DNA from: Legionellales bacterium
Lineage (GTDB): Bacteria > Pseudomonadota > Gammaproteobacteria > UBA1113
Assembly (NCBI GenBank): GCA_002707205.1
Contig: PAMH01000034.1
Coordinates: forward strand, 47,337-111,336
DNA: 64,000 nucleotides
Direction: 5' to 3'
The notes under the pieces: generated by a model
Seen by the model: the letters and a program-made list of their open reading frames with translations, nothing else
Told to the model about the DNA's origin: nothing
Databases searched by the model: none
Shown: piece after piece, positions 19,429 through 49,607 of the stretch
Layout of the letters: each line of letters opens with the position of its first letter
How positions within the stretch are numbered: position 1 is the stretch's first letter
Translations under genes and position numbers: made by a program

Positions 19429-20445
19429 ATGGTAAAAAAAATTGCTTTTGCATTAGCAGCAATTGGAATTAGCAGCGCAGCTTTTGCAGGACATCCTGGT
19501 GATGCGGTTGTAGCACCTACAGGTGTTAACTTAATCGCTCCAGATAGCGTTGGCGTTTGGACAGTTGGATTAGAGGCTTTATACATGGAGCCAACTAATG
19601 CTGATTTTCAGTATGCGCAAGTTGATGATAACTCTACACCAACGAATACGTTCAAAAATAAATCAACTAATCCATCTCATGATTGGGGCGGTACAATTGA
19701 CGTTGATTACTTATTCCCAGGTAATAGCCGTGACGTGAAATTATCTTATACGCATTTGCATATGGATAATAACGATGGTAGCGTTTCAACAGTTGGTACA
19801 ACTAACTCTTTAAGCGAACCTTTTGGTATTGCTCCAGTTAACTTTGACGGTGCTAAAGGTAGTTCTGATAACGATTTAGATGCTGTTGATTTAGTATTCG
19901 GTCAATGGATTCGTATCGGTGAGCGTGTAGATCTTCACCCATTTGGTGGTTTACGTTATGCTAGCATCGACATGAATGATAAAGGTAAATACACTGATAG
20001 CACTGATCTTGCAAACTATGGTGTTGGTAAAGTTAAATCTGACTTTAGTGGTATTGGTCCACGTGCGGGTCTTGATGCAACTGTACACGTAGGTTCTGGC
20101 GTATCTTTTGTTGGTACAGTAGGCGCGTCTTTATTAGTTGGTGACCTTGATAGCAAGTTCTCTGGCACTGAATATGTAGCTGGTGTAGCTGATAATGGTT
20201 TCAATGCTAAAAATAGCGAAGATACACACGTTGTTCCTGAGTTAGATGCTCGTTTAGGTGTTAACTACACTTATAACTTTGATCCAGCAACTGCATTAGG
20301 TGTTGAGTTAGGTTATCAAGCAGTTAACTACTTCGATGTAGCTGATAAAGATATTATTGATGCAGGATTTCCAAATACTGTAAATAACTCTGAAGACTTC
20401 GGTTATCATGGTCCTTACTTAAGAGTTCAAGTATCTATGGCTTAA
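19429..20445 (+). CDS. MOMP family paralog 5
   Basis: MVKKIAFALAAIGISSAAFAGHPGD...GPYLRVQVSMA; AAGGAAGG RBS. Confidence 0.85.
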   Translation: MVKKIAFALAAIGISSAAFAGHPGDAVVAPTGVNLIAPDSVGVWTVGLEALYMEPTNADFQYAQVDDNSTPTNTFKNKSTNPSHDWGGTIDVDYLFPGNSRDVKLSYTHLHMDNNDGSVSTVGTTNSLSEPFGIAPVNFDGAKGSSDNDLDAVDLVFGQWIRIGERVDLHPFGGLRYASIDMNDKGKYTDSTDLANYGVGKVKSDFSGIGPRAGLDATVHVGSGVSFVGTVGASLLVGDLDSKFSGTEYVAGVADNGFNAKNSEDTHVVPELDARLGVNYTYNFDPATALGVELGYQAVNYFDVADKDIIDAGFPNTVNNSEDFGYHGPYLRVQVSMA

Positions 20446-20470
20446 TTTTAAGTACATATTTATTTGTGAA

Positions 20471-20496
20471 AAAGCCGAGCGTAGCTCGGCTTTTTT
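20471..20496 (+). terminator. Rho-independent terminator after the MOMP array
   Basis: AAAGCCGAGC-GTA-GCTCGGCTTTTTT. Confidence 0.75.
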
Positions 20497-20835: not shown

Positions 20836-21939
20836 TTAACTTTCATTTTTATTAATAATCATTTGATTATCGATTATAATAGTTTGACTTGCTTGATGCC
20901 GATTAAGCTGGTTAATAATGTCATAATATGGGTGCATAATAAAAAATTCGATTGAAATATAACTGGCAACTAACACAAAAAGCCAAGTCGCCAGCAAAGA
21001 TTTAGAGGCATGTGTGACATCTGATTTTCCATCAAAATAGTTAAAACAGCAGCGCCAAATGAAGTAAGTTAAGGAAACTATAACGGCATAAAAACAAAAT
21101 GCATATATGTAGTTAAAGTTGTCTTGATACAAGTAAATAAATAAAGCCATAGAAGTTAACCCAAATAACCCAATAGCCGCTAGATAAGTATTTAATTTTT
21201 TGCAATGACGACCTTTCCATAAGTAAAGTAAAAGTAGAAAAGTTGGTAACACAATAAAAATAGTTTGATATATTGATTGCTGTGGTAATAGATTTGGTAA
21301 TCCTCCCATGGGTAAAATAATCGCTGGCAAGAATAAAGTAAAAAATGTTAAGAAAATACCTAAACTTTCTAAGATCTTTCCTAAAAGTTGTTCTCTGTAT
21401 TTTAGAAAGATATATAAAACAAATAGTCCAAGCATGTAATAGTAAAAATGCAGGGTATTTAAACCTTCATACAAAAAAACCAATACAAGTAAAGCAAAAC
21501 CCGCAAATAAGCCAAATCCAGCTAATACGCATAAAGCTCTAGGTTTATTGTCAGTTAAAGGCTTTGCAAATAGATGATCAAAAACACTAAGATAACCAAG
21601 AAAGATTAACAATAAGCCAATGATACCGCCTGGCTCAACTAGAATAATCTGCGGTAATAAATCATGTGGTAGCGAGGAAATACTTGGATAGCCAAGAGTG
21701 GTTAGATTAAAATTCATAAAACCAACATAGCAAAATAAACTCATAAGTCCTAGTAGGTATAAAATAGTTGTATAAGCATTGTTATGTCTTTTAGGTACAT
21801 CTGCAAGGCACGTATGGTAAAACATGAATGGGGCGGTAAATATTGTATATCCCAGTAAAAGTAACACGGCCCACAATGAAAACAGTGGTATTTCTAGCTG
21901 AAGAAAGCCGATAGCAATATGTAAATTTCCAATACCCAC
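20836..21939 (-). CDS. Polytopic inner-membrane protein (~10 TM) of unknown function
   Basis: 367-aa, highly hydrophobic ORF. Last gene of an apparent 3-gene minus-strand operon with the CMD and TraI_2-like genes. Confidence 0.5.
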   Translation of the reverse strand: MGIGNLHIAIGFLQLEIPLFSLWAVLLLLGYTIFTAPFMFYHTCLADVPKRHNNAYTTILYLLGLMSLFCYVGFMNFNLTTLGYPSISSLPHDLLPQIILVEPGGIIGLLLIFLGYLSVFDHLFAKPLTDNKPRALCVLAGFGLFAGFALLVLVFLYEGLNTLHFYYYMLGLFVLYIFLKYREQLLGKILESLGIFLTFFTLFLPAIILPMGGLPNLLPQQSIYQTIFIVLPTFLLLLYLWKGRHCKKLNTYLAAIGLFGLTSMALFIYLYQDNFNYIYAFCFYAVIVSLTYFIWRCCFNYFDGKSDVTHASKSLLATWLFVLVASYISIEFFIMHPYYDIINQLNRHQASQTIIIDNQMIINKNES

Positions 21940-22021
21940 GAATACTTCCTGAGTTTGTATAGCCTTATAATGTTAGTTTAGCGCATTTTGGCGCATTGGG
22001 TGCTGTATCACTGAAGAAATC

Positions 22022-22384
22022 TTATTGTTGTTCGAGTACTTCTTTTAGTGTACCAAGAGCTTCCACACAGCTTGGAAAGCCAACACAGCCAATAAGAAAT
22101 ATAATTAACTCAATAATCTCTTCTTTTGTCCAACCAACATTTAACATACCAAGAAAGTGGGCATGTAGTGGTAAGCCTGTTTTACCTTGTCCAATCAGAG
22201 ACGAAACAACCGCTATTTCGCGTGATTTATCTGTTAATCCTGATCTGCTATACAAATCGCCATAGGCAAAATCAACAACATATTTAGCAAAATCTGGTGA
22301 AATCGTTTGAAAGTTATCAATAATGGCGTCAGCATTGTTTCCTAAAATCTCCACAATTCGTTGTTTACCTTGTTGAGTGTTCAT
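22022..22384 (-). CDS. Carboxymuconolactone decarboxylase (CMD/AhpD-like) family protein
   Basis: 120 aa. Recalled resemblance to the CMD-family region IIELIIFLIGCVGFPSCVEALGTL. Confidence 0.6.
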   Translation of the reverse strand: MNTQQGKQRIVEILGNNADAIIDNFQTISPDFAKYVVDFAYGDLYSRSGLTDKSREIAVVSSLIGQGKTGLPLHAHFLGMLNVGWTKEEIIELIIFLIGCVGFPSCVEALGTLKEVLEQQ

Positions 22385-22402
22385 TTTAGATATATCCTTT
22401 TT

Positions 22403-23749
22403 CTATTTTTTGGGATTCAATTGTAAATTTTGCGTAAGCGTGGGATAGTGTGCGGTTATAGTATTAGTTGTTTGTAGTGTTGATTGTGTATTTTGAGTGG
22501 TTAATAATGTTGGATCTAAAATAAAGACTGTCTTTGATTGTGGTTTATTAAATCCACCTAAATTTACAGTTGATACTTTATGATGCAAAATATTTGTTTG
22601 TTTTTTTGCAAGTCCAAGGTCTTGTAAGGATTTTAAAATTTTTTGCGGATCATTGCCTAATCTGGGATTTTCAGTTAAAAAGCTTTTAATGACTTCAGGG
22701 TGAAAAACAGCAGCACCATCTGATACAAAATGAACTAATCTATCTGTTCGGCGGCTTACGCCCTCAATTGAATTTTTTAACCACTCAATAAAAAGTAACC
22801 CATATTCTGCAGTGCCACTGTAGCCACTGATATCTGTGGAGGTAATAGCAATGCCGGGTGTTTTACCAATTTCATGTGAGAAATTATTTGTTTTAGTAAA
22901 TTGTGTTTGCTCTTGTTTGCTAAAATTTACATCATTGTTATCAACGGGTTGGTTTTCATTATGATTAATATAGTCGTGTGATGCGGTTGCAATTAATGCT
23001 GATTCTAAATTTGGATTTTGTAATATTTTTTCCTCTATAGGTAAGATAATTTCAGCAATAAATCCACTGCGTTCAACATCATTTTGTAAAAAGGCAAGCC
23101 AAGCTTCAAATAGTAATTTATCCGAACTAATCCAAACAAATCCTTCGTGTGGCATCATATTTTTGGCTAAAATTGGACTGGTATAATTTGCAAGTATATC
23201 TCTGTTGATAGATTCAGTTGTATAACGATAGTGTGTACCTTTTTGTGCCGACATGTTACTTTCCATTGGATTCCATCGATGTCCATGAAAACCATTGCTG
23301 TCACATAAGGAAATCCAATAAATTGCTGGGATTTGACCAATTCCCCTGAAAAAAGCTGCTGTGAAAATTGCGTAGGTTAACAAGGCTGCACTTGCAGGGA
23401 TTTCATCAGGTTTAAGATTTTTTACGGGATTATTTTTTCGGTGTGCAACGAGACTGTCAATGGTACGTCGTATGCCTAATTCAAGAAAACCATTATGTTT
23501 ATTAAAAGCTTCATATTTCACAGCGGGTAATGCTTGAATAAATTCAATGTAATTATTTATTACGGGTTGATAGAGTACTTGCCAGTAATCATCGGTGATA
23601 TATACAAGATTTTTGATGCGAGAAATGAGTAACTGCATTTTTTTGTTGCTTAACACCATTTGAGCAGATGTTACTGTGTAATGCGGGGGAATTTTTCGTT
23701 GAATTTTAGTTTTACTAGACTGATTTTTGGGCGCCACTTTTTTAAACAT
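22403..23749 (-). CDS. Hypothetical protein with an N-terminal region resembling the TraI_2 (PFGI-1-class relaxase) HD-type domain; the HD motif appears degenerate and there is no helicase/relaxase C-terminal part
   Basis: YTVTSAQMVL...YQPVINNYIEFIQALPA...GFLELGIRRTIDSL...FRGIGQIPA...HGHRWNP. Pattern similarity to TraI_2 N-terminal domains is recalled from memory; it is not database-verified. Confidence 0.3.
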   Translation of the reverse strand: MFKKVAPKNQSSKTKIQRKIPPHYTVTSAQMVLSNKKMQLLISRIKNLVYITDDYWQVLYQPVINNYIEFIQALPAVKYEAFNKHNGFLELGIRRTIDSLVAHRKNNPVKNLKPDEIPASAALLTYAIFTAAFFRGIGQIPAIYWISLCDSNGFHGHRWNPMESNMSAQKGTHYRYTTESINRDILANYTSPILAKNMMPHEGFVWISSDKLLFEAWLAFLQNDVERSGFIAEIILPIEEKILQNPNLESALIATASHDYINHNENQPVDNNDVNFSKQEQTQFTKTNNFSHEIGKTPGIAITSTDISGYSGTAEYGLLFIEWLKNSIEGVSRRTDRLVHFVSDGAAVFHPEVIKSFLTENPRLGNDPQKILKSLQDLGLAKKQTNILHHKVSTVNLGGFNKPQSKTVFILDPTLLTTQNTQSTLQTTNTITAHYPTLTQNLQLNPKK

Positions 23750-23855: not shown

Positions 23856-24998
23856 TTAAGGGAGAAATATTTCTAATAAATTATTCAGATAACGTCTACC
23901 ATGCGCTGTCACAATCAGCATTTTATGATTGTAGGTTATGAAGTTTTGAGATTTTGCTTGCTGTAGATAAGGTATTAATACATCAATAGGTAATCTTGTA
24001 CGCTCAGAAAACAAATCAAAAGACAGGGATTGTGTTAAACGTAAAGCATTGAGCATAAATTCAAAAATACAAGTTGCTTGATCGATTTTAATATCTTGAG
24101 CGTCAGAAAAAATTTTAGCCATATATGCTCTTGGTAATTTGTATTTTTGGCGGCGTAAAATTTTTTTTGAATGCATGCAAGTTATTTTACCATGTGCACC
24201 AGCACCAATACCTAGGTAATCACCAAATTGCCAATAATTAATGTTATGCTTGCATTGACTGTTGGGCTTAGCGTAGGCAGAAATTTCGTATTGCTGATAG
24301 TTATTTTCAGCTAATAAATTCTGTCCTAGACTATGCAATTCTGCAATATAATCTTCCGTGGGTAATGATGGTGGATGTTTATAAAAAACTGTATTTGGCT
24401 CTAGTGTTAATTGATACCATGAAATATGTTCAGGTTTTTGTAAAATAGCATGTTGTAAGTCTTGTAAGCCGGCATCAATCGACTGTTCAGGTAAACCAAA
24501 CATTAAATCAAGATTAATATTTTTAAAGCCAGCTGTCCGAGCGTATTCAATAGCATGTAGCGCTTCATCTGCATTATGAATACGTCCTAATTTTTTTAAG
24601 TGTTGTGCATTAAAAGATTGAATACCTAAGGACAAACGGTTAATACCCGCTTGACGGTATTGAATAAAGTTTTTGATATCAATAGTTCCAGGATTTGCTT
24701 CTAAAGTAATTTCAGCCGTTTTATCAATACTGACTAATTGATTGATACGATCAAGTAATTCTTGAATACTATCACCAGAAAATAAGCTAGGTGTTCCACC
24801 ACCAATAAAAATGGTTTCTATTTTTCGATTGTTACTGAGTTCTAAGTCTATTTTTAAATCAGTGATGAGCGTATTAATATATTCTTTTTCTGGGATTAAC
24901 TTCCCCAGATGGGAATTAAAGTCACAATAAGGGCATTTTTTTACACACCAAGGTAAATGTATATAAAGTGATAAAGGAATATTATTTTGTGTAGTCAT
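23856..24998 (-). CDS. hemW: Radical SAM heme chaperone HemW (oxygen-independent coproporphyrinogen-III oxidase-like)
   Basis: CPYCDFNSH radical-SAM cysteine motif near the N-terminus; ~380 aa. Confidence 0.85.
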   Translation of the reverse strand: MTTQNNIPLSLYIHLPWCVKKCPYCDFNSHLGKLIPEKEYINTLITDLKIDLELSNNRKIETIFIGGGTPSLFSGDSIQELLDRINQLVSIDKTAEITLEANPGTIDIKNFIQYRQAGINRLSLGIQSFNAQHLKKLGRIHNADEALHAIEYARTAGFKNINLDLMFGLPEQSIDAGLQDLQHAILQKPEHISWYQLTLEPNTVFYKHPPSLPTEDYIAELHSLGQNLLAENNYQQYEISAYAKPNSQCKHNINYWQFGDYLGIGAGAHGKITCMHSKKILRRQKYKLPRAYMAKIFSDAQDIKIDQATCIFEFMLNALRLTQSLSFDLFSERTRLPIDVLIPYLQQAKSQNFITYNHKMLIVTAHGRRYLNNLLEIFLP

Positions 24999-25512
24999 AT
25001 TGTTTCATAATAGGTAAAAATATTTCAGTGATACACACAGTTTTCTGTTCTATGATGAAAATAGATCGGCGTGCATGTAAATTATCTGCAGTTTTAGCGA
25101 TAGAAAAATGTTGCATGAGAAAGCTTTCTTGCTGAACAAAACCGTATTCAAATGGGCTGCGTAGTATATTATTTTTTTGATAAAGAAATGCTTGTCCAAT
25201 GGGCTTTGTTCCAAGGTTATCAAATGTATTCTTATAAGTTTTATAAAGTGCTGAACTAATTACGGTACGTGCACAAACTGCCGCCTTGCCATCAAGTGTG
25301 TGCATAATATGTCTAACAAGCGCGCTACTTTCTTGCTGTACAAGTAAACTCCGTTCTTCTTGGGGGATGATTTCTTCGGCTTGATGGATTAAATAAAATT
25401 GGTGCTTACCTGCTGTTTGTAGGAGTGCAGTGAGATTGCCGCTAGCATTTAGCCACTTTTTCATAGCGCTATTATTTTTTATTAGTTCGTTTTTTTGCCA
25501 GCCGTAATTCAT
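24982..25512 (-). CDS. ubiC: Probable chorismate-pyruvate lyase
   Basis: ~175 aa; the C-terminal ...ITEIFLP resembles E. coli UbiC ...LTELFLPAS; overall length and layout fit. Confidence 0.45.
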   Translation of the reverse strand: MNYGWQKNELIKNNSAMKKWLNASGNLTALLQTAGKHQFYLIHQAEEIIPQEERSLLVQQESSALVRHIMHTLDGKAAVCARTVISSALYKTYKNTFDNLGTKPIGQAFLYQKNNILRSPFEYGFVQQESFLMQHFSIAKTADNLHARRSIFIIEQKTVCITEIFLPIMKQYDYTK

Positions 25513-25600
25513 GTGAAAGCTATCTGTATATTTTTTTTAATTTTACGCGATATTTTTTTTATTATCAAAAGTAAGCTATGATGTAAAAAATCAGTACAAT

Positions 25601-28912: not shown

Positions 28913-31081
28913 CTAACTCAAACCAGCTCTGATGTGATTAACGGTATTTGAGTCATTACCATAGACATTTTTAGATGGCTGTTGGCCTGCTTGTGGGTTC
29001 ACATTGGGGGCAACCGGTGGAAAAAATCTATTTTGGGCGTATTGATTTATAGATGGACTCGCAGATGGGCTCGCAGATTTTAAAAAACTAATTTCAACAG
29101 AATTTTCCTGTGCCCAACTTTTCCAAGCATCAAAAATTGAACTTAAACTTAAATATTTTTTTGTTCTATTTATTTCCATTTTACTTTCTAATTTGGTTAA
29201 ATAGCTCCTGAAATCAGGAGATTTTTCCTTTTCCAATAAGAAATCTTTTGTGAGTAATCTATGATCATATCGCTCTTTTTGATTGCTTAAAAATAAAGCG
29301 TTGAAATATAAAGAGTCCACTAAAGTTCGTCCATTTAAAATTTTACGCATTGAGTCGATGTTAATAGAATAAGTATCCTTCATTTGTTGAGGATAATCAT
29401 TAAGATAAATCGTCTGTAATTCATTATTAGAATATTCTTTTTTAAAAAGTTCTTGTGAAGACGTATAACTTCTATAAAGTATCTCCAATAACACAAATTT
29501 AATATACTGAAAGGGAAAGTACTTGTTTCGTCTCGCCTTTTTGTCATGAGGTTTAAGAGATGATTCTATTCTTTCGTTATCATCTAGCCTATTTTCAGTA
29601 TCATTTGTATTTATATGATCAAAGGCATTATATTTTTCATTAAGTAATTGTCTTTGCGTTTCATTTATATTGAAATCAAATCCAATAGGTTGATTGATAT
29701 TCTTCGGCTGATAATAAAATAATAAAAAAACTAGTGTTGTAACGAAATCAAGGAGTTCGTCAGCATTTGTAACTTCTTCTTCTTGTAGTATTTTATTAAT
29801 AACTTTTATTTCATCGCTAAAATTAAAATCTTTTGCCAATGAAAATTCGCTAATATAATTGATTATAACTTGAATATTTTCAGACTTTTGAGTTAATTGT
29901 ATTAAATGGGTATAAACTAAAAGAATAATATCTTTTGTATGGTTGGTTATTTCGGCTACGTGTTGATGAAAATCGAAGGCTGAAGCTAAAGAGGTCAAAG
30001 TGTCTTTTTGTAGTTGCATATCAAAATTAATTGATTGCATAATTTTGCGTATAAAATTATCATCATTATCATTATCCAATAGCTCCAATAGTAATTCAAA
30101 TAAAGTAATATTTTGATCTGTGATGACTATAACTTTTTTTTGTAAATCTTCTTCAGTTAATAGACTTTTTATTAAATTGTTATCTGTTGTTGTTGCTTCA
30201 ATATCAATATTTTTATAAGTTAAAGGTAATTTAATGCCGCGATCGGACATTTGATTTAAAATGAGTTTTATAATCTTATAATCATTAAGCTCATCAAAAT
30301 CTAAAGCAGCAACTAATGCAAATAAGTATGTTGAAGAAGTGTCGTTTGTATTTGAAATTGGATTTATATCAATATCACGTGAAAAATACAGCTTCCTTTT
30401 ATCACAAATTTTGATGGCATCATTTAATTCTTGGTTTGTAAAGCTAAAAATATTATCGTATTTATTTTCGTCTAATAAAGATTCTATCTTATCTGCATTT
30501 TCATCTAAGATCGCAGCGATCAGCAGCATCCTTATTTTTGTTTCTTCTTTTGTCTCGGTTGTTGTTTCTAATGAAAAGCCAGTGCATGCTTTTTTTGAAG
30601 GAGGCTGTTCATCAGTAGTATTAGTTAAAGCATCTTGACGCTTACCCAATAAACTAGAATTAGCCGCTTCTGTAAAAGCTAAAGCAATAGAATTAACGCA
30701 CTTTAACTTTTGTGTTTCTGGTATTGTTTCAGTTAACGTATTAATTGCATTATAAAAATAGCTGGCATAACTTTCTGAGTTTGAGATTTCATTTTCCTTA
30801 TCTAATGCTTGAAAAATTTCATACATTTGTAAGGCATTAATTTTATTATTCGAATTTAGCAAACACAAAATTTTATTTTCGACTGTTAAAATTAATGAAT
30901 TTATTTGGATGGCTAAGTTCATGTATGCTGTACGTAATTCTGGCAGAACTTGTTGCTTTAATAAATCCGCTAATTGTGCATGTAGTGATGAAAACATCTG
31001 TAACACTTGATTGTTACTAACAACTAATTTTGCTAGTTCTTTTTGTTGTTCTGTCGAAATAGAATGGTTTGCTGGAAACAT
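28913..31081 (-). CDS. Large AT-rich hypothetical protein (722 aa) with a Pro/Gln-rich C-terminus. Effector-like.
   Basis: Long ORF with no recognisable catalytic motif, rich in N/K/I/L, with a C-terminal PSASPSINQ...PPVAPNVNPQAGQQP low-complexity tail. Confidence 0.45.
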   Translation of the reverse strand: MFPANHSISTEQQKELAKLVVSNNQVLQMFSSLHAQLADLLKQQVLPELRTAYMNLAIQINSLILTVENKILCLLNSNNKINALQMYEIFQALDKENEISNSESYASYFYNAINTLTETIPETQKLKCVNSIALAFTEAANSSLLGKRQDALTNTTDEQPPSKKACTGFSLETTTETKEETKIRMLLIAAILDENADKIESLLDENKYDNIFSFTNQELNDAIKICDKRKLYFSRDIDINPISNTNDTSSTYLFALVAALDFDELNDYKIIKLILNQMSDRGIKLPLTYKNIDIEATTTDNNLIKSLLTEEDLQKKVIVITDQNITLFELLLELLDNDNDDNFIRKIMQSINFDMQLQKDTLTSLASAFDFHQHVAEITNHTKDIILLVYTHLIQLTQKSENIQVIINYISEFSLAKDFNFSDEIKVINKILQEEEVTNADELLDFVTTLVFLLFYYQPKNINQPIGFDFNINETQRQLLNEKYNAFDHINTNDTENRLDDNERIESSLKPHDKKARRNKYFPFQYIKFVLLEILYRSYTSSQELFKKEYSNNELQTIYLNDYPQQMKDTYSINIDSMRKILNGRTLVDSLYFNALFLSNQKERYDHRLLTKDFLLEKEKSPDFRSYLTKLESKMEINRTKKYLSLSSIFDAWKSWAQENSVEISFLKSASPSASPSINQYAQNRFFPPVAPNVNPQAGQQPSKNVYGNDSNTVNHIRAGLS

Positions 31082-33333: not shown

Positions 33334-36030
33334 ATGCAAAATCCAGAACGTATTCTTATTGACGGGTCGTCTTATCTTTATCGAGCATTTCATGCTATGC
33401 CACCTTTAATGAATTCAAAAGGGCAACCAACAGGGGCAATTTATGGCGTAGTTAATATGTTAAAGCGACTATTAAAAGACTATGATACTAAACATGTGAT
33501 TGTTGTGTTTGATCCTAAGGGAAAAACTTTTCGAGATGATTTATATCCAGCATATAAAGCCAATAGACCTTCGATGCCTGATGATTTACGCGTACAAATT
33601 GCACCATTATTTGAAATTATTAAAGCCATGGGATTACCTTTAGTTATCGTTGATGGCGTGGAGGCTGATGATGTGATTGGTACCATGGCAAAGAATGCAG
33701 TACAAGAAAACAAAACAGTACTTATTTCAACTGGCGATAAAGACATGGCGCAATTAGTTGATGAGCATGTTACATTAATTAATACGATGAATAATAAGCT
33801 TATGGACATTGATGGTGTTCAAGAAAAATTTGGTGTGCCACCTGAATTAATTATTGATTATCTGACTTTAATTGGAGATACCGTTGATAATGTACCTGGA
33901 GTGCCAAAAGTTGGCCCTAAAACTGCGGTTAAATGGTTATTAGAATATGGCAACCTTGATAATATTATTGCTAATGCGGACAACATTAAAGGTAAAGTTG
34001 GTGAAAATCTACGTGAAAGTATTACCTATTTACCATTATCAAAAAAACTCGTTACTATTAAAGTAGATGTGACATTGCCTTTTGATGAGGATGAATTAAT
34101 ACAAAAAGCGTCGCAAAAAGAACGTTTAATTATGCTATATAGAGAAATGGAATTTAAAACCTGGTTATCTGAATTATTATCTGATGATCAAACAGTTTCA
34201 GAAGATGCCCCATCAAAAGTATTACAGGTAGATTATCAAACTGTTTTAACGGAAACTACTTTAGAAAATATTATTAAAAAAATAAAAGCAAAAAAAATCT
34301 TTGCAATTGATACAGAAACAAATAGTTTGAATTACATGCAAGCTGATTTGATAGGTATCTCATTAGCAATAGAGGTTGACCAAGCCTATTATATTCCTTT
34401 GGCGCATGATTATCTTGATGCGCCTGAGCAATTGTCAAGAGAATATGTGCTACAACAATTGAAACCATTACTTACCGATGAGAATATTCAGAAAGTAGGC
34501 CATAACTTAAAATACGATATTAGTATATTTGCCAAATATGATATTGAACTAATGGGTGTTGCATTTGATACTATGTTAGAAGCGTTTTTATTAGAAAGTG
34601 GTTCAAGGTTAGATATGGATACTTTGGCATTAAAGTTTTTGGGGCACAAAACGATTAGCTTTGAGGATGTTGCAGGAAAAGGGGCAAAACAAATTAGTTT
34701 TAACCAAGTTGATATTAAAACGGCAACACAATATGCGGCAGAAGATGCTGATGTTACCTTAAAACTTCACCATCTATTTTGGTCAAAAATAAAAAAGGAT
34801 GATGCACTTGCTGAGGTATTAACGCAGACGGAAATGCCACTGGTAAACATTCTATCAAAAATAGAACGTACAGGCGTATTAATTGATGCTGATATTTTAC
34901 ATCAGCAAAGCACAGACTTAGCAGCACGTCTACAGGTAATTGAAACACAAGCATTTGAGCGCGTAGGGGCTCAATTTAATATGAATTCACCTAAGCAGTT
35001 ACAAAAAATTCTTTTCGAAGATATGGGTATTCCTGTCATAAAAAAAACACCAACAGGTCAGCCAGCTACCTCAGAAGAGGTTTTGCAGGAACTTGCACAT
35101 GACTATCCTTTGCCAAAATTAATTTTAGAGTATCGTAGTTTAAGCAAGTTAAAATCAACTTATACGGATAAGTTACCTTTGCTTATTGATCGGGGTAGTG
35201 GGCGAGTGCATACCTCTTATCATCAAGTGGGGGCAGCAACAGGGCGTTTCTCGTCCTCAGATCCTAATTTACAGAATATTCCAATACGCACAGTTGATGG
35301 TCGTAAAATTAGACAGGCATTTATTGCACCAGAGGGTTATCAGTTACTCGCTGCAGATTATTCACAAATAGAATTACGCATTATGGCGCACTTATCCGAA
35401 GATAAAGGCCTATGTGATGCATTTGCACAAGGTTTAGATATTCATAAAGCAACGGCGGCAGAAGTTTTTTCTGTAGCGCTAGATGACGTGACAGATTTGC
35501 AAAGACGGAGCGCCAAAGCAATTAACTTTGGTTTGATTTATGGTATGTCAGCTTTTGGTTTAGCAAAGCAATTGCATGTCGAACGTGCTGATGCGCAAGC
35601 TTATATTGATATGTATTTTGAACGTTATCCTGGCGTTAAAGCATATATGACTAACATCCGTGAACAGGCACATAGCAACGGATATGTTGAAACCTACTTC
35701 GGACGAAAATTACACCTGCCTGCAATTAACGCCAAAAACAAAATGCAACAAAATGCCGCTGAGCGTGCGGCAATTAATGCACCCATGCAAGGTACAGCAG
35801 CTGATATTATTAAGCGCGCAATGATAAAATTGGATACGCTGATTACATCTAAATCATTACCCATTAAAATTGTAATGCAAGTGCATGATGAATTAATTTT
35901 TGAGGTGGCTAATGACATTGTGGAGGAAGCGAAAGTTTTGTTGGCAACTACTATGGAAAATGCAGTCAAATTACATGTGCCATTGGTTGTCGATGTGGGC
36001 GTTGGTATAAATTGGGATGAGGCACATTAG
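33334..36030 (+). CDS. polA: DNA polymerase I
   Basis: 5'-nuclease, 3'-5' exonuclease and polymerase domains; motif A DYSQIELR, motif B RRSAKAINFGLIYG, motif C VHDEL. Confidence 0.95.
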   Translation: MQNPERILIDGSSYLYRAFHAMPPLMNSKGQPTGAIYGVVNMLKRLLKDYDTKHVIVVFDPKGKTFRDDLYPAYKANRPSMPDDLRVQIAPLFEIIKAMGLPLVIVDGVEADDVIGTMAKNAVQENKTVLISTGDKDMAQLVDEHVTLINTMNNKLMDIDGVQEKFGVPPELIIDYLTLIGDTVDNVPGVPKVGPKTAVKWLLEYGNLDNIIANADNIKGKVGENLRESITYLPLSKKLVTIKVDVTLPFDEDELIQKASQKERLIMLYREMEFKTWLSELLSDDQTVSEDAPSKVLQVDYQTVLTETTLENIIKKIKAKKIFAIDTETNSLNYMQADLIGISLAIEVDQAYYIPLAHDYLDAPEQLSREYVLQQLKPLLTDENIQKVGHNLKYDISIFAKYDIELMGVAFDTMLEAFLLESGSRLDMDTLALKFLGHKTISFEDVAGKGAKQISFNQVDIKTATQYAAEDADVTLKLHHLFWSKIKKDDALAEVLTQTEMPLVNILSKIERTGVLIDADILHQQSTDLAARLQVIETQAFERVGAQFNMNSPKQLQKILFEDMGIPVIKKTPTGQPATSEEVLQELAHDYPLPKLILEYRSLSKLKSTYTDKLPLLIDRGSGRVHTSYHQVGAATGRFSSSDPNLQNIPIRTVDGRKIRQAFIAPEGYQLLAADYSQIELRIMAHLSEDKGLCDAFAQGLDIHKATAAEVFSVALDDVTDLQRRSAKAINFGLIYGMSAFGLAKQLHVERADAQAYIDMYFERYPGVKAYMTNIREQAHSNGYVETYFGRKLHLPAINAKNKMQQNAAERAAINAPMQGTAADIIKRAMIKLDTLITSKSLPIKIVMQVHDELIFEVANDIVEEAKVLLATTMENAVKLHVPLVVDVGVGINWDEAH

Positions 36031-37315
36031 AAAAGTTATGAAAGATAAAAAATTGCAATCAACGATTCAAACGTTATCAAATAAAATTATAGAAGCGCAA
36101 AAAGAAATTCGTATTCTTGATGCAATTAAGTGGGATGCTGAAATTGCGCATGATTTTTTTGCTAAAAACTGTCAAGTTTTGCCAAAAATTAATGCTGAAT
36201 ATTATCAGCAACATACACCATTGTTATTTAATCCTGAACTCAAGCTGAACGAATTTTATGATATTGAGAGTCAAATTAAACAAAAAATTGGTAGTATTAA
36301 TCCCGTTGGTAAAATCATGATTCATATGTGTCAAGAATATCGAGAAGTAATACATATGTTGATGGCACGAGGAACGCCACAATTTTCACAAATATCACAA
36401 ACGCTTTATGGAACAAGCACAGAAGCATTTTATGCAAATGGACCTACTATTCATGATTTAGCCATTTTAATGAATCAATATGCATCAAATTTAATTTTAC
36501 AAACGCAAAATGTTAAAGATGAAAAAAAATATGATGCACAATATGCTTGTAACTATTTAAATCAACAAATACAAAGCTATTTTAAAGATCATAAAAATTT
36601 AATTAGTGTTGATATTAGTGACACTTTAGTATCAGATGCCGCTGCTGGTGCAGATAAAATTCGCGTACGAAAAGATGCCATCTTTAGTGAGCGTGATTTG
36701 CGTATGCTCGAGGTACATGAAGGTTGGGTTCATTTGGGTACAACTTTAAATGGTAGTCTACAGGAAACATGTACTTTTTTATCTAAAGGTACACCATCGA
36801 CAATTGTGACCCAAGAGGGTTTAGCTGTCTTGATGGAGATTTTGACTTTAAGTAGTTTTCCAGAGCGTGTTGAACGTATTATCAGTCGTATTGATGCTAT
36901 TCATATGGCAGAACAAGGCGCAAATTTCATTGAAATTTTTAATACATTGCATGCCCAAGGTTTAACAAAAGATCAAGCTTATAGTCGTGCAGTTCGTGTT
37001 TTTCGAGGCAGTACCCCCGATGGCAAGCCATTCACTAAAGACTTGGCTTACAATAAAGGTTTTGTTTTATTGTATAACTTTATTCGTATTGCGATTAAAC
37101 AAAATAAATTACACTTAATTCCATTATTATTTGTTGGAAAAATTCGTTTAGAAGATATTCACCATATTGATGCGTTACATGCAGAAGGTATTATTCAAGC
37201 CCCACATTATGTGCCTTATCCGCTCAATGATATGGCAGCACTTAGTTGTTGGTTATGTTACTCTCTCTTTATGAATAAATTGGATCTTAATAAAATGGAA
37301 AGTGACTTTAACTAA
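36017..37315 (+). CDS. DUF1704 / flavohemoglobin expression-modulating QEGLA-motif protein family
   Basis: Contains the diagnostic TQEGLAVLME motif; ~430 aa; overlaps the polA stop by 14 nt. Confidence 0.55.
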   Translation: MRHIRKVMKDKKLQSTIQTLSNKIIEAQKEIRILDAIKWDAEIAHDFFAKNCQVLPKINAEYYQQHTPLLFNPELKLNEFYDIESQIKQKIGSINPVGKIMIHMCQEYREVIHMLMARGTPQFSQISQTLYGTSTEAFYANGPTIHDLAILMNQYASNLILQTQNVKDEKKYDAQYACNYLNQQIQSYFKDHKNLISVDISDTLVSDAAAGADKIRVRKDAIFSERDLRMLEVHEGWVHLGTTLNGSLQETCTFLSKGTPSTIVTQEGLAVLMEILTLSSFPERVERIISRIDAIHMAEQGANFIEIFNTLHAQGLTKDQAYSRAVRVFRGSTPDGKPFTKDLAYNKGFVLLYNFIRIAIKQNKLHLIPLLFVGKIRLEDIHHIDALHAEGIIQAPHYVPYPLNDMAALSCWLCYSLFMNKLDLNKMESDFN

Positions 37316-40475: not shown

Positions 40476-42557
40476 ATGTTTAAGTCTTATAAGAGAAATT
40501 TTATGCCGACATTGACAAATAAATGTTACGAGACATCATTATCTAAATTAACAAATAAAAAGCCTGAAGAATTACCTGAATGTAAGGATTTTTCAATTAA
40601 GGCATTTGCTGAAGTATTGAATAAAGACTTGAGCGAGGCTGATGCGCTTCACATTCCGGAAGGATTAGAAGAAGCATTAAAAAAACATATTGGCGAACAG
40701 TCAAATTATTCCTTAATAAAACAATTAAAAGCAGCATGTTGGCGTGTTTATCAGTACTTAAAACACTCAGATATGTCATTAAAAGAGCGAGCAAGTTTAG
40801 TCGTTGAATTGTGCGAGGACATTCAAGAATGCACTCAGGGTTTTCATGAGCGTATATCGAGTTTTTTATTAAAAATACAACGACCGGTTAGTATCGATGA
40901 TTATCTACGTCGTATAAAACTCAATATCATTCAAGAAATTGCTGCTGAGATGAGTCGATCTAGGGGGTATCATAAGAATAGACAGGAAGGCAAACACCTT
41001 CACACGATAATGCAAAATTACGCACACACAGAAAAAATGGGTGTTCCCGATTCATCAACAAAGCAATGCTATGACATTGCATTTAATGACCGTGATAAAA
41101 GGGACTTTAAAGACGCATTCAATAAAAAATATAACGCATTAAATTTATTAATTATGTTACAGACAGAGATAGAAAGGGAATTAGAGGCATATTATGATTA
41201 CAAAGGGTTCAACGAAAAAGGATATGAATCTGTAGTTTACGAAAAAATAATTACGCATTTAAAAAAATTACTTGGTAAAAAGGTGACTTACGGTAATATT
41301 TTTTTGTTAAAAAATGATAAATTAGTTGATATTAACTACCTAAAGCTACAAAAGTTTTCATTTGAAAAATTACGTATTGACCAGTATATTAATTTTACAG
41401 AACTAGAGCAAAAGCTGTTTGAGGCAATTTACTCTGAGGAAGCTAAATTATTTCAGGACTATTTAGATTCAGAAGGAGGTATTGAATGTATCAAAGCGTT
41501 GCGCTTATTTTCGTATGAGGCATTATTTAATGCGCCAAGTAATGAGGCTAAATTTAATATGCTGATAGCACGTTGGTTTTCAGACGAAGAAAACAAAAAT
41601 CAGTTTTTACAGTTACCCGAACGAAAATCAACTTTAGTGTGTAGAATAAATATTTTAAGTATGGCATCAAAGAAGTTAATTAAGTCTATTTTTACGTCAA
41701 TGCCAATGACACTAACCAACATCTATGTCCTCGCGGCTTATAGCTTAGTTGCTATAGAGAATAAGTTACCCTTGGTAGATATTTTTTTAAATATTTTATC
41801 TGAGCAGGATGAAGAGTTTAAAACGGCTTATTTTACTAAGTATCATTCACCGACTCGCAAAGTTTCTATTTTAATGCAAGTGATGAAATTCTTTCCTGAA
41901 AAATTAGGGGTGTTTTTAGCGCAAATTTCCAGTTTATCTGTAGAAAAACAAGTTGAAATTTTTTCTTATATCACGCCAATGGGATTTAATATTTTTAATA
42001 TCCTACAAAGCTCGCCTAGAATCGGAGTCATCCTTGCTGCGCCAATCAATAGCTGGGAAAATAACAAACAGGCAGATGACATGATACGTCAGCTTATTGC
42101 AACGATAGAAAAATTACCATTAATTGCACAATATAAAATAAGTCAAAAAATGCCACAAAATTCAAGTATTGAGCTATTTATTGAATATTTAAATAATTTT
42201 CAGTCTAATGTTAAAAATAAGATAAATGCACTGAAAAATTCGGAAAACGAGATTGATCGCACTATTTTTACGTTAATTAATAAACTACACTATAATGCTG
42301 AAGAAAAACAATTATGTATACTGGCTGCCTATCATGAGCTTAAATTTAACTCAAACTCTGATAACCTCTTAAATAATGTTAGTCAGGCAGTGAATAATTC
42401 TGAAAGTGCATTATATCGCGCATTAAATATGCCAAGAGCACCAACATTAACGTTCTTGAATAGTTTGTTTTTTACCCAGAAAGAGACGTGTCAGTCTTTA
42501 CAGTTAATAAAGACTAAGCTTGAGGAACATAAGCGGATAACAAATGCTGTTAACTAG
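40476..42557 (+). CDS. Large AT-rich hypothetical protein (693 aa). Effector-like.
   Basis: Long ORF, mostly helical, with no recognisable motifs, flanked by housekeeping genes. Confidence 0.45.
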   Translation: MFKSYKRNFMPTLTNKCYETSLSKLTNKKPEELPECKDFSIKAFAEVLNKDLSEADALHIPEGLEEALKKHIGEQSNYSLIKQLKAACWRVYQYLKHSDMSLKERASLVVELCEDIQECTQGFHERISSFLLKIQRPVSIDDYLRRIKLNIIQEIAAEMSRSRGYHKNRQEGKHLHTIMQNYAHTEKMGVPDSSTKQCYDIAFNDRDKRDFKDAFNKKYNALNLLIMLQTEIERELEAYYDYKGFNEKGYESVVYEKIITHLKKLLGKKVTYGNIFLLKNDKLVDINYLKLQKFSFEKLRIDQYINFTELEQKLFEAIYSEEAKLFQDYLDSEGGIECIKALRLFSYEALFNAPSNEAKFNMLIARWFSDEENKNQFLQLPERKSTLVCRINILSMASKKLIKSIFTSMPMTLTNIYVLAAYSLVAIENKLPLVDIFLNILSEQDEEFKTAYFTKYHSPTRKVSILMQVMKFFPEKLGVFLAQISSLSVEKQVEIFSYITPMGFNIFNILQSSPRIGVILAAPINSWENNKQADDMIRQLIATIEKLPLIAQYKISQKMPQNSSIELFIEYLNNFQSNVKNKINALKNSENEIDRTIFTLINKLHYNAEEKQLCILAAYHELKFNSNSDNLLNNVSQAVNNSESALYRALNMPRAPTLTFLNSLFFTQKETCQSLQLIKTKLEEHKRITNAVN

Positions 42558-48566: not shown

Positions 48567-49607
48567 TTAACTATCAAAAAGGGTTTGATTTAATGCAAAA
48601 TCCTTTGCAACTGCTTTTGCAATAATGTTTTGTTCAACTAAAGTTTTTAAATGCATATCAAGTGTTTGCATGCCCATTTGATGTCCAGTTTGAATCGCTG
48701 AATACATTTGTGCAACCTTATCTTCGCGAATGAGGTTGCGAATAGCTGCGGTACAAAGCATAATCTCGCAAGCAGCAACTCGACCACCACCTATACGCTT
48801 GATTAGAGTTTGAGAAACTACTGCTTGTAATGATTCAGATAACATTGAACGTACCATTTCTTTTTCACCGGCAGGGAAAACATCAATGATCCGGTTAATC
48901 GTTTTAGCTGCAGAGTTAGTATGTAAGGTTGCAAAAACCAAATGACCTGTTTCAGCGGCAGTTAAAGCGAGTTGAATTGTTTCAGGGTCTCGCATTTCAC
49001 CAACCAGGATAATATCTGGGTCTTCACGTAGGGCAGAGCGCAAGGCAGCACTAAAGCTTTTGGTATGCTGATGTACTTCTCTTTGATTGACAAGAGATTT
49101 TTGACTTTCATGAACAAACTCAATGGGGTCTTCAATGGTAAGGATATGTTCGTATCGCGTTTTATTTAGTTGATCTATCATGGCAGCAAGCGTAGTACTT
49201 TTACCAGAGCCTGTTGGACCTGTAACCAAAATTAAGCCATTTTTTTTATTGGATAAGGTTTGTAAAACCGGTGGAAGGTTCAGTTCATCAACAGTTGCAA
49301 CCTTTGATGGGATTGCACGAAATACGCCGGCAGGGCCTCGTTCTTGTTGAAATACATTGACACGAAAACGTGATAATTTTGGAACATCAAAAGAAAAATC
49401 AGTTTCCCAGTTTTGCTCATACATTTTCTGCTGACTATCAGTCATGATATCATACAATAGAGAATGTACGGTTTTTGCATCGAGGTTAGGTAAATTAACT
49501 TTGCGTAAATCCCCATCCACACGAATCATTGGTGGTAAACCGGTAGAAACGTGTAAATCAGATGAATTATTTTTTACGGCGAAAGCGAGTAATTCAGTTA
49601 TATCCAT
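48567..49607 (-). CDS. pilT: Type IV pilus retraction ATPase PilT
   Basis: Walker A GPTGSGKSTT, Asp box, Walker B and His box; 346 aa. Divergent from yggS-proC-yggT, as in Pseudomonas. Confidence 0.9.
   Translation of the reverse strand: MDITELLAFAVKNNSSDLHVSTGLPPMIRVDGDLRKVNLPNLDAKTVHSLLYDIMTDSQQKMYEQNWETDFSFDVPKLSRFRVNVFQQERGPAGVFRAIPSKVATVDELNLPPVLQTLSNKKNGLILVTGPTGSGKSTTLAAMIDQLNKTRYEHILTIEDPIEFVHESQKSLVNQREVHQHTKSFSAALRSALREDPDIILVGEMRDPETIQLALTAAETGHLVFATLHTNSAAKTINRIIDVFPAGEKEMVRSMLSESLQAVVSQTLIKRIGGGRVAACEIMLCTAAIRNLIREDKVAQMYSAIQTGHQMGMQTLDMHLKTLVEQNIIAKAVAKDFALNQTLFDS

Follow-up and report, generated by a model that had tools for sequence, protein, structure and literature searches.

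Why does an ordinary bacterial chromosome carry a gene related to the relaxases of conjugative elements, and what could its product do there? The question is raised by three open reading frames (ORFs) on the minus strand at positions 20836-23749 of a 64-kb window, the whole stretch of DNA analyzed here, which has a GC content of 35% and comes from the metagenome-assembled genome (MAG) of a marine member of the Legionellales (identical protein on record as CMF49_07550). In order of transcription they encode proteins of 448, 120, and 367 residues. An original prediction, made from the letters of the window, described three same-strand genes with gaps of 18 and 82 nt, and our coordinates confirm this layout. 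It read the products as a degenerate TraI_2/HD-like protein, an AhpD-like protein of the carboxymuconolactone decarboxylase (CMD) family, and a membrane protein with 10 transmembrane (TM) segments, and it suggested a domesticated, relaxase-derived module or a novel membrane-associated system. The 448-aa protein proves very likely to be a member of the short-form TraI_2/TraI_2_C family in which relaxase chemistry has been lost.

Family assignment and fold of the 448-aa protein

The similarity to TraI_2, which had been proposed from motif patterns, is borne out by the hidden Markov model of this family. PF07514 matches residues 26-241 of the 448-aa protein with a significant score of 40.2 bits (gathering cutoff 23.9, E 2.6e-10), and the Pfam model for TraI_2_C (PF07515) reaches 24.1 bits against a gathering cutoff of 27.3. 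Two relaxase models also respond, TIGR03760 for the PFGI-1-class relaxases of integrated conjugative elements (ICEs; 95.2 bits, E 4e-27, curated cutoff 161.4) and NF041494 for MobH (87.8 bits, E 6e-25, curated cutoff 200), both with scores below 60% of their curated cutoffs. The sole solved structure matched by sequence is 3KQ5, an uncharacterised protein from Coxiella burnetii (E 3.2e-16).

The AlphaFold2 model, built from 62 family sequences, has a predicted local distance difference test (pLDDT) score of 81.6 and a predicted template modeling (pTM) score of 0.79. Foldseek retrieves 3KQ5 with this model (E 3.5e-14) and 2IPQ with its C-terminal domain (probability 0.99). The likeness to 3KQ5 extends across both domains, by sequence as well as by fold. 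As modeled, the HD-superfamily fold of the N-terminal half and the winged-helix-like C-terminal domain are both retained (Table 1). The statement that the protein has no relaxase/helicase C-terminus is therefore inaccurate, as the model shows the family's own C-terminal domain at residues 313-412, the part that matches 2IPQ. This domain resembles DNA-binding winged helices. A disordered C-terminal tail rich in Ser, Thr, Asn, and Gln is also kept, and 86% of the family members begin, as here, with Met-Phe.

The family is large. A profile search collected 1,900 cluster representatives with E<1e-3, of which 417 have E<1e-30, and the 150 best have, with few exceptions, lengths of 400-500 aa. A word-indexed protein search with the 62-sequence profile returned 7 proteins, and a scan of genome contigs with the single protein as query gave no match. 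A profile scan of genome contigs produced a 51-residue match in a Trueperaceae MAG, which we rejected as spurious. The 448-aa protein is thus new to a large, already known but uncharacterised short-form family, of which it is an unusually degenerate member. Of the suggested domesticated module, the relationship to relaxases, the degeneracy, and the non-conjugative chromosomal setting hold up; its novelty does not, given the 417 representatives and the known MOBH3 family.

3KQ5 has been placed in a MOBH3 clade devoid of the relaxase motifs, for which an "alternative function" was suggested (PMC6736028). It is through 3KQ5, assigned to MOBH3 in that study, that we infer MOBH3 membership for the 448-aa protein. 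Within the TraI_2/TraI_2_C family, the MobH conjugative relaxases form the branch that is catalytically active and belongs to mobile elements. Lpg2927 of L. pneumophila is a homologue of 3KQ5 (CBU_0560), and its gene lies between ksgA (lpg2928) and apaH (lpg2926). When lpg2927 is deleted in frame, the bacteria replicate less well in macrophages, a defect that can be complemented in trans; strains with a transposon in the gene grow normally in broth, and the function of the protein was left open (PMC11559062). Neither Lpg2927 nor CBU_0560 appears in any further paper of the literature searched. The window thereby extends, by a highly degenerate protein, a widespread and uncharacterised family for which a crystal structure dates from 2009 (3KQ5) and a virulence-related L. 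pneumophila phenotype from 2024 (Lpg2927).

CBU_0560 and Lpg2927 share the two-domain architecture modeled for the 448-aa protein and have a similar length (~400-500 aa). The two motifs of active relaxases, the alternative 3H motif and the HD motif, are missing from the 3KQ5 clade (PMC6736028) as they are here, and the Legionella gene, within the same order Legionellales, is likewise chromosomal and surrounded by housekeeping genes (PMC11559062). However, sequence identity is only ~20-23%, and the 448-aa protein falls into a separate, more degenerate clade that is described below. The position of the gene also differs, following hemW in the window and lying in the order ksgA-Lpg2927-apaH in Legionella (PMC11559062), and the orphan membrane gene and the CMD gene found downstream here are missing at CBU_0560 and Lpg2927.

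Loss of the catalytic residues

To locate the catalytic positions, 151 family sequences were aligned with a bona fide MobH relaxase, that of Vibrio tubiashii plasmid p123, as the reference. All three His residues of the alternative 3H motif and all four metal ligands of the HD center are replaced in the 448-aa protein. The HD dyad had been described as replaced within the string FRGIGQ, and R135-G136 indeed occupy the dyad positions in the alignment. The substitutions at the ligands are mostly non-coordinating (L91, R135, and G136), with E239 as the exception. In TraI, the alternative 3H motif is required for oriT cleavage, and mutations in the motifs strongly reduce or abolish cleavage (PMC6736028). 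Because the residues needed for Mn2+-dependent oriT cleavage are all replaced, the 448-aa protein should be incapable of MobH-type nicking and of relaxase or phosphohydrolase action by the known mechanism; it is predicted to lack site-specific, Mn2+/Co2+-dependent cleavage of single-stranded DNA (ssDNA) at oriT.

The extent of the loss varies between clades. No short-form clade keeps the HHH, the usual replacement being S/G-Y-F/Y. Among the 27 representatives of the window's clade a mean of 0.19 of the four HD ligands is kept, and 22 have none. The mean is 2.1 of four in the Legionella clade and 2.5 of four in a third clade. Both the 3H and the HD motifs survive in a clade whose proteins are longer (median 567 aa). 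The member that was checked (locus L017) adjoins an integrase and an ArdC-like gene, and because of these neighbors and the two intact motifs we regard it as a real relaxase. On the aligned sequences, the metal center appears to decay stepwise from the full tetrad to none between clades, which suggests that the conserved function is independent of catalysis.

The MobH relaxases, such as TraI of the gonococcal genetic island and those of SXT/R391 and the PFGI-1/ICEclc class, have a homologous TraI_2 HD fold, a disordered linker, and TraI_2_C, as does the 448-aa protein in its model. The latter differs in lacking the alternative 3H motif and the HD metal center, in scoring far below the MobH family cutoffs, and in its linker of ~60 residues as opposed to ~300 in TraI (PMC6736028). 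Its gene, unlike theirs, has no plasmid or ICE location and no type IV secretion system (T4SS), coupling-protein, or integrase gene nearby. Degenerate HD-fold domains such as HDOD offer a likeness in principle only, that of a pseudo-enzyme built on an HD fold, and have no detectable sequence relationship to the 448-aa protein.

Chromosomal setting and gene neighborhoods

The 448-aa gene is chromosomal, vertically inherited, and non-mobile. The window is ordinary chromosome and includes plsY, rnt, queG, pcnB, miaA, hemW, ubiC, lexA, mdh, polA, uvrD, proC, and folA. A Pfam scan of all 53 window ORFs of at least 150 aa found no T4SS, coupling-protein, or integrase gene among them, in agreement with the earlier remark that no other conjugation genes are present; the sole secretion-type match is a PilT-like T2SSE ATPase at 48567-49607. 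A tRNA scan and an Rfam scan of the window were both empty, and no repeats were found in it. The GC content at third codon positions (GC3) is 0.24-0.26 for all three genes (0.24 for the CMD gene), the same as for host housekeeping genes. A recent horizontal gain of the CMD or membrane gene, which we considered, finds no support in this base composition.

Plasmids tell the same story. In a search of 72,556 plasmid records, coverage of at least 80% of a short-form query was reached on one L. adelaidensis record only, NZ_LR134433.1, "Legionella adelaidensis plasmid 24" (365 kb; locus L007), with both the L. adelaidensis protein and family member P0006 as queries; the window's 448-aa protein is covered to 76% on the same record. 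Since this record carries ubiE, ubiB, tatABC, rsmA, and apaH, we take it to be a mislabelled chromosome fragment, and no true plasmid among the records searched carries a full-length short-form homologue. MOB-suite types NZ_LR134433.1 as "mobilizable, relaxase MOBH" owing to the short-form gene, and JGI labels another short-form protein (P0035) "ICE relaxase (TIGR03760)". Chromosomal short-form genes thus set off false "MOBH relaxase" and "ICE relaxase" calls.

The conservation of the neighborhood was examined with tblastn, using the three window proteins against 18 loci. The CMD gene is present in no related locus, its single match, L014, being the window's own organism. The membrane gene occurs only in L001, L004, L005, L015, and L018. 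In the first four of these, where the 448-aa homologue is 43-54% identical to ours, a copy with 55-64% identity lies directly downstream; the membrane gene is directly 3' of the 448-aa gene wherever its homologue has readable upstream sequence, that is, in these loci and in the window. The order ubiC-hemW-448-aa gene is conserved in L001 and L004, and the whole mdh-lexA-cysQ-ubiC-hemW-448-aa gene neighborhood is syntenic among the closest relatives. Downstream of the pair there are three different contexts: MOMP genes in the window, a FIST gene with a histidine kinase gene in L001, and gpsA-secB-grxC in L004, L005, and L015.

Elsewhere in the same clade, the membrane gene is absent beside the 448-aa homologue in L002 (39% identity) and in L009, L010, and L011 (~33%), where the homologue lies between gpsA and hemW or follows a SpoU/TrmL-type methylase gene. 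It is also absent in all of the deeper-clade loci fetched. The 448-aa gene therefore long predates the membrane gene and functions without it. The three genes were not found together in any other lineage among these loci, one of two outcomes that the original prediction named as counting against it, the other being the lack of a significant TraI_2/HD match. The trio is a local arrangement and carries little weight as a candidate new system, and the CMD gene is a lineage-specific insertion between the other two genes.

Chromosomal housekeeping genes surround the short-form homologue in all 14 of its loci, and in several of them the neighbor is the same. The gene order is ksgA-homologue-apaG-apaH in L003, homologue-apaG in L012, and homologue-apaH in L016 and L019, the gap in L019 being 2 nt; in L013 the homologue is followed by mnmA. 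In L. adelaidensis, whose orthologue matches the window protein with E 7e-18, the arrangement is rsmA-homologue-apaH-tolC-like, with an overlap of 8 nt between the homologue and apaH. The homologue is thus directly upstream of apaH or apaG-apaH at L003:6001-8747, L007:7947-10068, L012:271-2080, L016:1975-4272, and L019:2257-4361. In the deep clades ksgA/rsmA is often found upstream, and the homologue-apaH pair persists in L019, where comM takes the place of ksgA. This tight linkage to apaH/apaG and ksgA in several deep clades is a concrete lead, and no more than a lead, towards Ap4A, Np4-cap, or RNA 5'-end metabolism.

Proposed role and alternatives

Taken as a whole, the explanation that we favor, and regard as reasonably likely, is that of a dead relaxase relative of the short form that probably serves as a non-catalytic binder in a housekeeping role. 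The vertically inherited chromosomal protein would consist of a basic N-terminal tail, the helical HD-superfamily domain, a disordered linker, and the winged-helix-like TraI_2_C domain. Its catalytic residues being replaced, the known mechanism of relaxases and phosphohydrolases would be closed to it, and it would instead bind a nucleotide or nucleic acid in the form of ssDNA, hairpin DNA, or RNA. Its gene would share a transcript with ubiC-hemW on the upstream side and with the CMD and membrane genes, both of them lineage-specific additions, on the downstream side, and adjacency to the membrane gene would be incidental. The binding mechanism taken by itself is a tentative proposal, to which we give slightly less than an even chance. 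It is put forward because hairpin ssDNA is recognised by active relatives, conservation is highest in the cleft domain, the net charge of the first 25 residues is +7, the C-terminal domain looks like a winged helix, and the ligands are lost.

Several points weigh against this explanation. A non-catalytic binder is a prediction made on the grounds of the fold, the missing ligands, the basic tail, and the winged-helix-like domain. Nine of the 50 Legionella-clade sequences (P0049, P0063, and P0087, for example) have the full H...HD...D tetrad without HHH, and to judge from the alignment the short-form family may be functionally heterogeneous, with an ancestral function that may have been enzymatic. 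Invariant or near-invariant polar and aromatic residues also remain, namely Q72, R95, Y126, W159, Y174, W206, and W217, and these could form a different active site. Finally, the persistence of the 448-aa-membrane gene pair in front of differing downstream genes is mild evidence of a functional link.

The retained residues bear directly on whether the protein has remained enzymatic, as a phosphodiesterase or nuclease whose active site was rebuilt in the cleft of the HD fold. This cleft domain is modeled at very high confidence and contains many residues that are invariant across the family, a complete tetrad exists in some short-form relatives, and the homologues of other clades frequently adjoin apaH/apaG, an Ap4A hydrolase operon. 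We nevertheless consider an enzyme unlikely, as none of the four metal ligands is present in the 448-aa protein or in 22 of the 27 members of its clade, and the residues that take their place here can mostly not coordinate metal, E239 excepted. Mutating the corresponding motifs strongly impairs or abolishes cleavage by TraI (PMC6736028). Moreover, His, Asp, and Glu residues form no other conserved cluster in the family as a whole, and most of its near-invariant positions are aromatic, Gly, or Pro.

The gene pair, for its part, could reflect a dedicated membrane-associated system in which the polytopic partner recruits the dead relaxase to the membrane, with or without the CMD protein. The direct adjacency in the window, L001, L004, L005, and L015 despite differing next genes fits such a system, as does the better conservation of the membrane protein (55-64% identity, compared with 43-54% for the 448-aa protein). 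TraI of N. gonorrhoeae associates with the membrane through an N-terminal helix (PMC6736028), and the Legionella homologue is encoded upstream of the Lit envelope transporter (PMC11559062). Yet a search of 5.8 billion proteins yields only 5 homologues of the membrane protein, there is no membrane gene beside the homologues of L002, L009, L010, L011, or the other clades, and the CMD gene is unique to the window's lineage. The mdh-lexA-cysQ-ubiC-hemW-448-aa block is syntenic within a narrow group, so the adjacency may be simple descent, and in L. pneumophila Lpg2927 could not be linked functionally to the Lit transporter (PMC11559062). On balance we hold a dedicated system to be improbable.

Relaxases are natural substrates of T4SSs, and the 448-aa protein might have kept the features by which they are recognised for secretion while losing DNA processing. 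The TraI_2_C domain, as modeled, and the disordered, S/T/N/Q-rich C-terminal tail are retained, and the Legionella homologue is needed for growth in macrophages and not in broth (PMC11559062). This seems very unlikely to us, because the gene sits in conserved housekeeping operons (ksgA-448-aa homologue-apaG-apaH), one such locus has chemotaxis genes and a higher GC content that suggest non-Legionella hosts, and neither Lpg2927 nor CBU_0560 is reported as an effector in the literature searched. A bolder combination, in which the dead relaxase homologue of this marine Legionellales lineage would be coupled to the newly evolved 10-TM protein as a membrane-anchored module for nucleic-acid handling or as a secretion adaptor, and the short-form family would comprise relaxase-derived clients of the Dot/Icm T4SS, is likewise highly speculative. 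If it were true, loss of a Dot/Icm client would explain the intracellular-growth defect of the Legionella lpg2927 mutants.

The last alternative, that the locus is a decaying ICE remnant and the gene a non-functional relic, agrees with the loss of all catalytic motifs and with the automatic "ICE relaxase" or MOBH labels of homologues, but is effectively refuted by the intact ORF, the 417 cluster representatives of similar length at E<1e-30, the high-confidence model that matches a crystal structure, the host-like base composition, the lack of integrase, tRNA, repeats, and T4SS genes in the window, and the complementable phenotype of the Legionella homologue (PMC11559062). What we prefer is still the non-catalytic housekeeping protein.

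The CMD-family and membrane proteins

Assignment of the 120-aa protein to the CMD family stands, with 39.5 bits for PF02627 against a cutoff of 23; its description as AhpD-like does not. The catalytic CxxC motif of AhpD has no counterpart, as the aligned helix, LPLHAHFLGMLNVG, is free of cysteine. The only cysteines of the protein are those of GCVGFPSCVEA, with the spacing C-x6-C. Among solved structures it most resembles the gamma-CMD-like protein 2AF7 (E 9e-18, residues 17-118), which is of the MTH234 type and has the same single-domain size, and it is better described as PcaC/gamma-CMD-like. The PcaC model TIGR02425 yields 33.9 bits, far below its equivalog cutoff of 155.7, and no pca-pathway genes occur in the window.

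The 367-aa protein has ~10 hydrophobic segments by hydropathy, in keeping with the predicted 10-TM topology. It has no match in Pfam, NCBIfam, the PDB (profile search), or PADLOC, and Pfam scans of its five homologues show no recurring family. Charged and polar residues that are invariant across the five include E102, D121, E158, N161, H164, K180, R182, D303, H310, and E331. The AlphaFold2 model is unusable (pLDDT 42). None of the three proteins matches a defence system in PADLOC.

Locus layout and transcription

The features of the locus are collected in Table 1. Each of the three starts is preceded by a purine-rich, Shine-Dalgarno-like run, AGG, AAGGA, and AGGAAG. The hairpin listed in the table has a z-score of -4.42, and none of 200 shuffled sequences folds equally well. 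No convincing terminator precedes it on the downstream side of the string formed by the 448-aa, CMD, and membrane genes, it would serve the convergent MOMP gene as well, and a simple terminator scan did not report it. No significant hairpin was found in the 106-nt spacer between hemW and the 448-aa gene (z -0.58) or in the 82-nt spacer between the CMD and membrane genes (z -0.91). Because the spacers are short and free of hairpins and a single strong terminator follows, ubiC, hemW, the 448-aa gene, the CMD gene, and the membrane gene are probably read as one transcript that ends at this hairpin. A scan for consensus promoters performed at chance level (32 sites, compared with 26.2 +/- 6.1 in shuffles), and we claim no promoter.

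Table 1. Coordinates of the 448-aa gene, its parts, and the surrounding features in the window
Feature	Position	Strand	Description
448-aa gene	22403..23749	-	ATG start; short-form TraI_2 + TraI_2_C protein, putatively MOBH3-type; homologue of the CBU_0560/3KQ5 and Lpg2927 family
Basic N-terminal tail MFKKVAPKNQSSKTKIQRKIPPHYT	23675..23749	-	Codons 1-25; low model confidence; net charge +7
Helical HD-superfamily (TraI_2) domain	23000..23674	-	Codons 26-250; block-mean pLDDT 92-98 over residues 21-240
Degenerate alternative 3H motif	23504..23521	-	MobH PA-S-E-x-H-H-H; here PA-V77-K78-Y-E80-A81-F82
First His of HD center	23477-23479	-	L91 here; alignment to V. tubiashii MobH
Degenerate HD motif	23333..23347	-	MobH H-D-I-G-K; here R135-G136-I-G-Q139
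Last Asp of HD center	23033-23035	-	E239 here; alignment to V. tubiashii MobH
Disordered linker	22814..22999	-	Codons 251-312; rich in S/T/N/Q; pLDDT <50 over residues 262-298
TraI_2_C domain	22514..22813	-	Codons 313-412; winged-helix-like alpha/beta fold (model)
120-aa gene	22022..22384	-	ATG start; stand-alone CMD-family protein, gamma-CMD/PcaC-like
367-aa gene	20836..21939	-	GTG start; orphan polytopic membrane protein, ~10 TM segments
hemW	23856-24998	-	Upstream of the 448-aa gene (Pfam, NCBIfam)
ubiC	24982-25512	-	Upstream of hemW (Pfam, NCBIfam)
Putative bidirectional intrinsic terminator, hairpin AAAAAAGCCGAGC-UACG-CUCGGCUUUUU	20469..20496	.	Near-perfect 12-bp stem, flanked by A6 and U5 runs

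The relatives differ from the window in one further gene of this string. A NUDIX hydrolase gene lies between an inositol-monophosphatase-family gene and ubiC at L001:3476-4033 and L004:2240-2791, and it is missing from the window at 25513-25600. The window has gained the CMD gene between the 448-aa and membrane genes and is without the NUDIX gene of its relatives.

Other features of the window

Eight paralogous Legionella_OMP genes (MOMP, PF05150) are found on the plus strand, in one array of five (14757-20445) and another of three (59200-62010). The first array ends ~390 nt from the membrane gene, with which it has the bidirectional terminator in common. Four large ORFs have no Pfam match at E<=0.01, at 336-1829 (-), 8036-9571 (-), 28913-31081 (-), and 40476-42557 (+), and encode 497, 511, 722, and 693 aa, respectively. 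Their products may be specific to this lineage, and in a Legionellales genome effector-like proteins would be plausible. The ORF at 36017-37315 (+) matches MATCAP (PF08014), the microtubule-associated tyrosine carboxypeptidase family, with E 1.7e-123 and overlaps the end of polA by 14 nt.

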